Part shown: positions 31,183 to 33,909 of the stretch, piece by piece
Position numbering within the stretch: position 1 is the first letter of the stretch
How the letters are laid out: each line of letters opens with the position of its first letter
Assembly: GCA_026025795.1 (NCBI GenBank)
Contig: JAPEUG010000175.1
Location: 1 to 33,909, forward strand
Length of the DNA stretch: 33,909 bases
DNA from: Thelocarpon superellum
Lineage: Eukaryota
Direction: 5' to 3'
The notes under the pieces: generated by a model
What the model was told of the DNA's origin: nothing
What the model saw: only the letters and a program-made list of their open reading frames with translations
The model's database searches: none
Position numbers and translations under genes: made by a program

Positions 31183-31560
31183 TATTAGAGGAGTCCTCCT
31201 TTAACTATCCATTTGATCGAGGAGGTGATTTTGTCGAACACCCCCCTACCCCCTCCACCCAAGCGTTCTCGTTCGTCCCTTTCGCTTGATTCTGGAACGC
31301 CGGCGGCGCAGACTTTGGGCGTGCGCTATGCTTTATAGCAGTCTCCACATGTCAGGATACGAGGTTTCTGGGCTGGTGAGGGACAGGCTCAGCCTGAGGC
31401 TGTTCGTATATACTTACATCCTTCTCCTGACCTTTCGACACATGACCTCTATATCACGGCTCTTCCAATTCCCTCCCCCTCATACACGCTCCCCACTCAT
31501 TCCTCCCACCAACGTACTCCCGTCCATCCACCAACCCGTCGCCGACTCCATCCAACCACC

Positions 31561-31617
31561 CTGTCCCCGTTAGCAACGCTCAAGACCCAGAAAGGACACA
31601 CTCATCTAAAAAAAAAG
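31561..31617 (-). other. Telomerase RNA 3'-processing signals: U-rich Sm-like site plus 45-nt terminal intron with non-canonical 5' splice site
   Basis: Minus strand: CU9AG (31617-31606), then AUGAGU (31605-31600), branch point GCUAAC (31574-31569), 3' splice site CAG (31563-31561). Confidence 0.8.
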
Positions 31618-31888
31618 TAGTGCCGTCCCTTCCCGTCCGCGAAGACGAAGACGAGAAGAGACAGCTGGGGTGCCTCCTCCTCGGCACATGGAGATTCCTT
31701 CCCTCAAATGGCACCTCCGCCACCAATCGACACTTCGATTCGCCCCCGCCGTGGCTCCGTCCGGTTCGAAAGCGTGCTTCTCGTCGCGTGTCCAGCTCCG
31801 ATCTTGTCTCGTTCTGCGTCGCTCGGACGTCTCGCTTTCTCGTCGCGTGAAAGTGCCAGTGGGTTCGTGTCTGGTCGCAAGGGCGATA

Positions 31889-31945
31889 GCAGGAGCAGAC
31901 AAGCACAAAGCTTTGAGCCTCACCCGAGAGAGGTCCCGCTCCTAC
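31889..31945 (-). other. Telomerase RNA CR4/5 three-way junction (P5, P6, P6.1)
   Basis: P5 GUAGGAGCGG/CUGCUCCUGC; P6 GACCUC..GAGGCUC; single A linker; P6.1 AAGC-UUUGU-GCUU; GU linker. Confidence 0.85.
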
Positions 31946-32364: not shown

Positions 32365-32465
32365 GGACTAGTCTTTGCTTCCTCTTCCGTCGAGCTGCCA
32401 TGGAGATGACACCGTCGAGAAGGGCATTGAAAAGCGGGCAAAGGACATCCTCAAAAACCGCTTTC
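32365..32465 (-). other. Telomerase RNA pseudoknot candidate
   Basis: S1 GAAAGCGG/CCGCUUUU; loop UUUUUGA; S2 GGAUGUCCUUUGC/GCAAAGACUAGUCC (bulged). Confidence 0.72.
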
Positions 32466-33683
32466 GTCTCCATTGAGGAGGTAGACATCCGCTCCGTCTG
32501 TGACGACAGCGTGGATCAAGTGTCGACGCTCACCTGTCAACCCCAGTGCAACCCACAAGAGGAGGCGATTAACGCGGCTGATCGAGACCCCAGCTAGGTC
32601 CCTTCGGACCGAGCCGGGCCACATCGTATGGCTACTGCCTCAACGTGGGTCCGGTGAGGGAGCTTCATCATGAAGATGATACGGATGAGGATTGAGGTGG
32701 ATAGCCGGGCCATAAACAAAGCACCGTGGTGCCCGCGAGGTGGGGAGAAAGGTACGGGACGTCTTCCAGCTGCACCAAGTCCACTCCCGGGTCAACCCAC
32801 AATGAGCCACCGCCCCTTGCGCACCCCAAGACCGAAACCGCTAGACACCTCGGAGTCCCGCACACGGTCCTTCTGAACACAATCGACCATCTCTCGATCC
32901 GTGCCACTCTCTACTCGACCAGATGAAATGAGACGACTGGAACGGACGTCATGCTTGATCTGACCACTCCACACCCGCTTTCCTTGTATGTTCAAAGCCA
33001 TCGGACGTGCTCGTCGCGGTACCAATGATGAAGCGGTGAGCTCCAACAACGAGTACACAACGACGATCACGAGCGATAGCAAAGACAGTGCCACGCTGTA
33101 GCGATGGCGAAAGCAGGCCTGAAGTGTTCTGTTCGTAGGCAAGTATCGTGTGACCGAATCCTGGACGTGTTCATGTCTCATCTCAGCCGGGCAGGAAGAG
33201 AGTGGCAGGGTCGAGAGGGGTTCGGTTATTGAACAAACAGAAGGATCTTGTCACGAGACAGGCCATTCGGCGATTAGGACCCGCAAAGGGGGGTTGCAAA
33301 CAACGACGGCCATCGCAGAGGAACCCGAGAGCGACACGGTCAGCATCAACGGAAGATCCCAAAGGCGGTCCATGGCGAGCCACGTGCCACCCGACCTTTC
33401 TCACCGACTATCGCTCAATGACTTCCTGCCGTGCTCCACATCAACAAGACATCCCAAGATGATCAGAGTATGGTGTCCAGCCATAGACAGCGACGCATTC
33501 TGTTTCAAGAAATGCATGCCATCCATTCTTTGACGCCGAGAGGCTCTGGACGTCAACCTCCCCTTTCGTACCTCTCGCATAGGCTTGGGCAGACGAGGCC
33601 CGTCGCGAATGCAAGGGATTAATCGAGGAGGCGACAACTGTGACGCGAAACTGGTCTTCCGTGGGGAAGAAGTCGACGATAGA

Positions 33684-33692
33684 TTAGGGTTA
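33684..33692 (-). other. Telomerase template 5'-UAACCCUAA-3' (1.5 repeats complementary to TTAGGG)
   Basis: + strand ttagggtta; lies 2 nt downstream (minus sense) of a 15-bp helix. Confidence 0.85.
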
Positions 33693-33909
33693 AGTTCCGA
33701 CACCCATCCTCCCATACCACCACGTCCAAAGTGACATCGCCAGTAGAATCTGTGCATCCGAAGAGACCATGCCATGAGGCTCGTGGGCCAGACTCTACGG
33801 CAGATGCCCGGGTAGATATGGGAGGCTTTGAGGCATCCCGGCACGAGGCAGAGAGATGAGTGCCGGAAGACTATGGGAAGGGCGAGCCGCGGTGTGGTAT
33901 AGCTCCCTC

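Follow-up and report, generated by a model that had tools for sequence, protein, structure and literature searches.

Template-adjacent helices that bound the template of telomerase RNA are already a known kind of element, those of filamentous ascomycetes having been described in 2012-2013 and encoded in the Rfam consensus. According to the available part of PMC4993307, fungi bound the template with a stable helix that lies directly upstream of it, and in Kluyveromyces, Saccharomyces and S. pombe a template-adjacent helix at the base of a longer arm blocks copying past the template, the arrangement also proposed here. The yeast templates and telomere repeats differ from those of the present locus, and the same source reports that the tip of the Saccharomyces arm binds Ku and that the S. 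pombe helix overlaps the template. Within the Aspergilli, a boundary helix of ~8 bp, supported by covariation, is in most cases separated from the template by 2 nt (Kuprys et al. 2013, PMC3603654, available part). In Neurospora crassa the template 5'-UAACCCUAA-3' was verified with template mutants (PMC3592445, available part). That paper, in which N. crassa telomerase was also reconstituted in vitro, restricts the term 'template boundary' to a figure legend, a single descriptive sentence and the title of a cited reference. No experimental test or mutant of the boundary element in a filamentous fungus was found in the available text of PMC3592445, PMC4993307 and PMC3603654.

The locus considered here lies at one end of the window, by which we mean the whole 33,909-base stretch of DNA that was analysed, and is read on the minus strand. 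An earlier note on this DNA had interpreted a long helix beside a putative template as a template boundary element, citing the use of adjacent helices by fungal telomerase RNAs to bound the 5' side of the template, which agrees with PMC4993307 and PMC3603654 in the parts of those articles available. That interpretation is supported by the placement of the helix in a locus recognised by Rfam model RF02462, by its match to the curated core, by double changes in a group of related loci and by an excess of pairing over shuffled sequence. The minus strand from 33909 to ~31890 is very probably a Pezizomycotina telomerase RNA gene with the 15-bp helix as its template boundary element, of the fungal template-adjacent type and at the base of a 174-nt arm, in which the core CCGG/UCGG, probably continued by AG/CU beyond a 2-nt bulge, is conserved and the distal 9-11 bp are a lineage-specific stabilising extension. 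The features of the locus are collected in Table 1.

Table 1. Positions of the proposed telomerase RNA features in the window, with the evidence for each.
Feature	Positions	Strand	Basis
Probable outer core-enclosing helices, 5' strands (CCGCGG ... GCC)	33881..33892	-	Alignment to Rfam '((((((---(((' columns via L013 alone
5' strand of boundary helix: AG (33872-33871), possible UC bulge (33870-33869), UUCCGGCACUCAUCU (33868-33854)	33854..33872	-	Pairing; within conserved motif CCCAYAGUYUYCCG
Arm enclosed by helix, 144 nt, with nested 10-bp stem and apical island 33784-33760	33710..33853	-	Folds; conservation with L040 group
3' strand of boundary helix: GGAUGGGUGUCGGAA (33709-33695) and CU (33694-33693); curated conserved part UCGG-A-ACU (33700-33693)	33693..33709	-	Pairing, conservation
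Template UAACCCUAA, 1.5 telomere repeats, specifies TTAGGG	33684..33692	-	Single copy in window; identical to N. crassa template
Long-range helix, 5' strand GUCGAC, just 3' of template	33672..33677	-	Equivalent to Rfam '<<<<<' cUGGu, 17 nt after template start
Long-range helix, 3' strand GUCGAC, ~60 nt before three-way junction	32522..32527	-	Aligns to Rfam '>>>>>' gCCAg
Three-way junction (P5/P6/P6.1, CR4/5-like)	32366..32461	-	Rfam RF02462 match

Identification of the locus begins with the three-way junction, which matches the Ascomycota telomerase RNA model RF02462 in cmscan at 54.1 bits (E 7e-13, gathering score 30) over model positions 1285-1381, i.e. the CR4/5-like three-way junction. 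On that strand the template precedes the junction by ~1.2 kb, and its single occurrence in the window compares with a chance expectation of 0.03. The junction is the one part of the window RNA that scores against RF02462; when 33560-33909, which spans the template, was scanned by itself against Rfam at E values up to 10, no telomerase match was returned. As the template region could not be scored directly against the curated model, the comparison was bridged through L013, a related metagenomic locus that matches the full model (positions 1-1858, 676.8 bits), and through which UAACCCUAA aligns with the unpaired template positions of the RF02462 consensus. The region was read as non-coding, since a 168-aa open frame (33401-33907, minus) has no Pfam match and its gaps relative to the L040 group, the nearest relative among the matches listed, are not multiples of three; the frame was accordingly rejected as a coding sequence. 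Two further Rfam hits were recorded: a match to CRISPR-DR36 within 33560-33909 at E 4.2, rejected as chance, and a weak match to the C/D-box snoRNA-like family SNORD100 inside the telomerase RNA (32622-32678, minus; 17.9 bits against a gathering score of 58, E 3.7), which is most likely chance.

Compared with the Pezizomycotina element of N. crassa (Qi et al. 2012/13, PMC3592445, available part) and RF02462, the helix in the window occupies the same position 5' of an identical template and, in the RF02462 columns, carries the same letters, AGU..CCGR on one strand and UCGG-A-ACU on the other. The surrounding layout is likewise common to both: the strands of the outer helices that enclose the core come first, a long-range helix starts just 3' of the template, and a CR4/5-like three-way junction is present. 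The curated RF02462 helix consists of 4 + 3 bp, whereas that of the window has 15 continuous base pairs, and its template-proximal register is AGU/ACU, where UU/AA is also possible in the window. The Aspergillus helix, as given in the available part of PMC3603654, shares the 2-nt spacing but has ~8 bp and a short arm, in contrast to 15 bp and a 144-nt arm with internal stems. What sets this locus apart is the 15 bp, the 144-nt arm and an RNA divergent enough that the junction alone scores against the curated model, while the length of the helix and a conserved invariant base that reaches the template are mildly new for the element itself. The template, boundary helix and core layout are thereby placed in a telomerase RNA that the curated model recognises at the junction alone, a layout that is useful for the annotation of very divergent fungal telomerase RNAs, and the listed base pairs offer specific targets for boundary mutants. 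CGGAACUUAACCCUAA together with the three-way junction could serve as anchors for finding this locus in other genomes.

The pairing proposed in the earlier note was reproduced to the letter. The strands UUCCGGCACUCAUCU (33868-33854) and GGAUGGGUGUCGGAA (33709-33695) on the minus strand pair at 15 of 15 positions, comprising 12 Watson-Crick and three G-U pairs with a duplex energy of -23.6 kcal/mol, and the dinucleotide CU (33694-33693) separates the helix from the template, as had been claimed in giving its end as 2 nt away. Likewise, the nested 10-bp stem claimed inside the arm, GUAGAGUCUG (33798-33789) with CAGAUUCUAC (33752-33743), is paired at 10 of 10 positions, and its pair probability was 0.99 in all four sequence contexts folded (201, 260, 410 and 710 nt). 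The window thus holds a stable helix whose 3' strand ends within 0-3 nt 5' of the template, namely 15 bp at a distance of 2 nt, or 0 nt if the flanking AG and CU pair.

Alignment to the Rfam columns via L013 (alignments A1 and A2) indicates that the curated 4-bp core, CCGG/UCGG, lies within the 15-bp helix, which lengthens it on the distal side. At L013 the Rfam consensus reads AGU-UCU-CCGA ('<<<---<<<<') against UCGG-A-ACU ('>>>>->>>'), with the unpaired UAACCCUAA directly after. In the same columns the 5' side of the window is A33872 G33871 U33870 / C33869 U33868 U33867 / C33866 C33865 G33864 G33863 (AGU-CUU-CCGG), and the 3' side is U33700 C33699 G33698 G33697 / A33696 / A33695 C33694 U33693. 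Three template-proximal registers are possible in the window, all within ~1.5 kcal/mol: UU/AA alone, UU/AA with AG/CU across a UC bulge, and AGU/ACU. Since the curated AGU/ACU pairing runs up to the template, the 2-nt spacer may itself be paired (A33872-U33693 and G33871-C33694); each of the four RNAs compared has AG and CU, and the helix may therefore abut the template, with the conserved AG/CU closing the 2-nt gap. The spacing given in the earlier note was thus exact, but the two U-A end pairs on which it placed the end of the helix are not conserved (33868/33695 is U-A in four of the six rows of A2 and 33867/33696 in two of six), and the gap itself is possibly paired by AG/CU.

Relatives were obtained from a metagenome scan with the junction motif, which yielded at least 118 loci; among those listed, ten had a telomerase-type junction by the screen and represent three distinct RNAs, the other 108 of the 118 being rejected as chance matches. 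A stricter junction motif gave no matches in prokaryote-genome contigs and none in viral contigs. The loci L003 and L011 are identical and count as one telomerase RNA, as do L013 and L110, while L040, L042, L051, L077 and L087 are near-identical variants of a further one, referred to as the L040 group; neither L087 nor L110 has enough flanking sequence to include the template. The window RNA is 0.45 identical overall to L040, whose group is its nearest relative among the matches listed. Alignment A2 comprised six rows from four telomerase RNAs, leaving out L051 (equal to L042 here) and L011 (equal to L003), and in it L013 is gapped opposite the distal pairs. L013 is also misplaced in the 5' part of the four-way global alignment (identity 0.00), so the L040 column alone was used from that alignment. 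Four sequencing runs were additionally inspected. Run X3, a moss metagenome, contains a near-identical strain whose sole listed change within the arm, 33753 T>C, falls in neither helix, and a contig of a related organism in run X5 keeps 27 of the 30 letters at 33684-33713, also covers 33541-33567 and ends before the 5' strand. No covariation was obtained from runs X3-X6, X4 and X6 having no coverage of the template region and X5 none of the 5' strand.

Comparison with these relatives revealed that both strands of the helix are islands of conservation, with identities to L040 of 0.72 and 0.88 against 0.45 for the whole RNA (the 25-nt bin 33709-33685 being 0.88 identical). The 5' strand lies in the motif CCCAYAGUYUYCCG, which is common to the window, the L040 group, L013 and the Rfam consensus; on the 3' side the window, the L040 group and L013 all read CGGAACU, and GGAAC, followed by U or C and then U, directly precedes the template in all three listed relative RNAs, the template region of L003 being AAACCCUAA. 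Across L040, L042 and L077, 12 of the 15 pairs are kept. Two of these, 33862/33701 and 33860/33703, change from C-G in the window to A-U in the L040 group (A2 columns 16/202 and 18/200), i.e. double changes of the compensatory kind that the earlier note had proposed looking for in relatives, and 33863/33700 changes from G-U to A-U. Broken pairs in the group are 33867/33696 (U-A to C.A) and 33859/33704 (U-G to C.U), with 33868/33695 additionally broken in L077. As the L040 group is the single informative lineage for the distal pairs, their comparative support amounts to approximately two independent substitution events, and as the core and AG/CU are invariant in sequence, they give no covariation signal in either direction.

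When AG/CU is included, the resulting 17-pair helix was paired in 85.9% of cells in A2, a count in which the cells of L003 are unreliable because that row is one column out of structural register. None of 500 shuffles reached any of five measures for the whole counted structure (27 pairs, nested stem included), and sliding the partner strand by 1-3 columns reduced pairing of the same structure in A2 from 82% to 27-49%. RNAalifold, given the window and the L040 group, predicted 12 of the 15 helix pairs unaided, and when the four RNAs were folded separately over the stretch that begins with the 5' motif and ends at the template, each closed a long arm by pairing YCCG with CGGA adjoining the template. 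The nested stem was paired in 76% of cells in the relatives with six double changes, but the alignment there is unreliable and RNAalifold picked another register.

How much of the helix is general, and how much specific to one lineage, is indicated by a duplex-only test on the 17 nt before the template. In the window and in L040 no stretch paired better than the homologous 5' strand (its duplex was equalled in 8 and 46 of 1000 shuffles, respectively), whereas in L013 and L003 the strongest duplex formed elsewhere and did not exceed chance (86 and 394 of 1000 shuffles, respectively). When a partner for the conserved 5' motif was sought by best duplex, the sites obtained were inconsistent across the four RNAs. 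From the duplex-only test, the long helix is specific to the lineage of the window and L040 and the short core alone is general; the 4-bp core was found in all four telomerase RNAs compared, and the distal 9-11 pairs are lineage specific.

This division gives rise to the best surviving alternative, which is nonetheless improbable: that the short curated element alone (CCGG/UCGG plus AGU/ACU, 7 bp) forms in vivo, that the distal 5' strand folds locally, either as CCGGCAC/GUGCCGG (33866-33860/33844-33838) or as the small hairpin of the relatives, and that the 15 bp are an over-extension. The absence of a significant long duplex in L013 and L003 is consistent with it, as is the arrangement in L013 and the Rfam consensus of a short helix followed by a small hairpin. 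Folding also lends it weight. The 15-bp helix is part of the minimum-energy fold in a 201-nt context (mean pair probability 0.66), but it lies 3.7 kcal/mol above the optimum in a 260-nt context (0.37), 4.4 kcal/mol above in a 410-nt context (0.20) and 3.5 kcal/mol above in a 710-nt context (0.31). The fold of 33909-33650 (minus), which the earlier note had named as a check on its helix, went against it, as the local hairpin CCGGCAC/GUGCCGG replaced the 15-bp helix in the minimum-energy structure of this 260-nt context; in the 201-nt context the same hairpin is 0.8 kcal/mol above the optimum. With the helix optimal at 201 nt and suboptimal at 260-710 nt, and a hairpin so close in energy, energy by itself does not discriminate between the two folds. 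Only 37 nt of the window lie upstream of A33872, compared with ~227 nt in the Rfam model, so that part of the 5' region of the telomerase RNA is probably missing from the window and may contain competing partners for the helix strands. Against the local fold, the hairpin CCGGCAC/GUGCCGG has no counterpart in the L040 group, in which the distal pairs are kept with two double changes; moreover, the hairpin uses the core CCGG and so cannot coexist with the curated helix.

The preferred reading is that the extended helix, together with its curated core, presumably forms in vivo and, by analogy, would set the template boundary. We infer this function from yeast, ciliate and other systems (PMC4993307 and PMC3603654, available parts). 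Under such a mechanism, the reverse transcriptase would copy UAACCCUAA from its 3' end toward U33692, and the stable duplex adjoining U33692 on the 5' side, which the RNA-binding domain of the reverse transcriptase may hold in place, would keep positions 33693 onward out of the active site. Synthesis would then stop and the product translocate, such that only TTAGGG repeats would be made.

A less probable alternative still is that the helix forms but that its main role is not that of a steric boundary, the invariant base instead anchoring the RNA-binding domain of the reverse transcriptase, as ciliate helix II does, or the helix simply supporting an arm that brings in an accessory protein, in the manner of the Saccharomyces Ku arm. 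The invariance of CCG/CGG and ACU across four divergent telomerase RNAs and the Rfam consensus goes beyond structural need, the apical island of the arm is 0.84 identical to L040, and template-adjacent helices are described in the available part of PMC4993307 as acting via protein binding or base pairing, all of which would suit such a role. However, an anchor or recruiting arm is compatible with boundary function and so is not exclusive of it, and the arms of Aspergillus are short and are reported, in the available part of PMC3603654, without Ku or Reg2 elements. A combination of these ideas in two layers is possible, if rather doubtful: the invariant base (AG..CCG / CGG-A-ACU) would be a putative sequence-specific anchor for the RNA-binding domain of the reverse transcriptase, again as in ciliate helix II, while the lineage-specific arm with its apical island at 33784-33760 would be a putative dock for an accessory factor of filamentous-fungal telomerase.

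Chance pairing was assessed by keeping the 33 nt ending at the template and shuffling the 180 nt upstream with dinucleotides preserved. Shuffles reached the duplex energy of the 15-bp helix in 1 of 1000 cases, and in 8 of 1000 with a slightly longer upstream range. That the helix plays no part in structure and is a fortuitous complementarity between one G-rich and one C/U-rich stretch is barely credible. Composition does favour long runs (anchored runs of at least 10 arose in 494 of 3000 shuffles, because a G-rich strand faces a C/U-rich one), but a contiguous run of at least 15 ending 0-4 nt from the template arose in only 4 of 3000, and the helix is both conserved with compensatory changes and coincident with the curated element.

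Beyond the boundary helix, the long-range core-enclosing helix 3' of the template that is expected of RF02462 members was also present. The two GUCGAC strands pair with one another, and UCGAC/GUCGA in the window against CUGGU/GCCAG in L013 constitutes double changes at two pairs, as read by eye; the corresponding Rfam '<<<<<' strand closes ~100 model positions before the junction. An island of conservation at 32560-32584 (minus), CGAUCAGCCGCGUUAAUCGCC, shortly precedes the 3' strand of this helix and has identities of 0.80, 0.64 and 0.76 in all three relatives. A further island at 33535-33559 (minus), GACGUCCAGAGCCU, is 0.72 identical to L040 and 0.68 to L003, is covered by the 33541-33567 segment of run X5 and is possibly part of a pseudoknot or of the core; the stretches of the RF02462 consensus structure that were inspected mark no pseudoknot.

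Within the arm, the apical island at 33784-33760 (minus), CGAGCCUCAUGGCAUGGUCU, is nearly unchanged in the L040 group (0.84 over its 25-nt bin), its flanks being ~0.4 identical. Directly after the 5' strand, the relatives carry a small hairpin, UUCCgaAAGGAA in Rfam, UCCCGAAAGGGA in L013 and CCUUGCGCAAGG in L040, followed by a conserved AUGYCU; the window at 33835-33853 (minus) retains GGGAUGCCU, in which the hairpin is weak.

Toward the other end of the RNA, ~450 nt 3' of the junction, an island at 31890-31943 (minus; at its widest 31960-31885), GGGACCUCUCUCGGGUGAGGCUCAAAGCUUUGUGCUUGUCUGC, is also found in contigs of related organisms in runs X5 and X6, and its bin 31934-31910 is 0.88 identical to L040 and 0.84 to L003. 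It lies approximately where the Rfam model would end and may represent the 3'-end or processing region of the telomerase RNA. Downstream of this presumed 3' end, within 31560-31630 (minus), a run of nine U followed by AG (~31626-31614) and the motif UGCUAAC (~31576-31570) were observed, which could be intron signals connected with processing of the 3' end by the spliceosome, or could belong to an adjacent gene.
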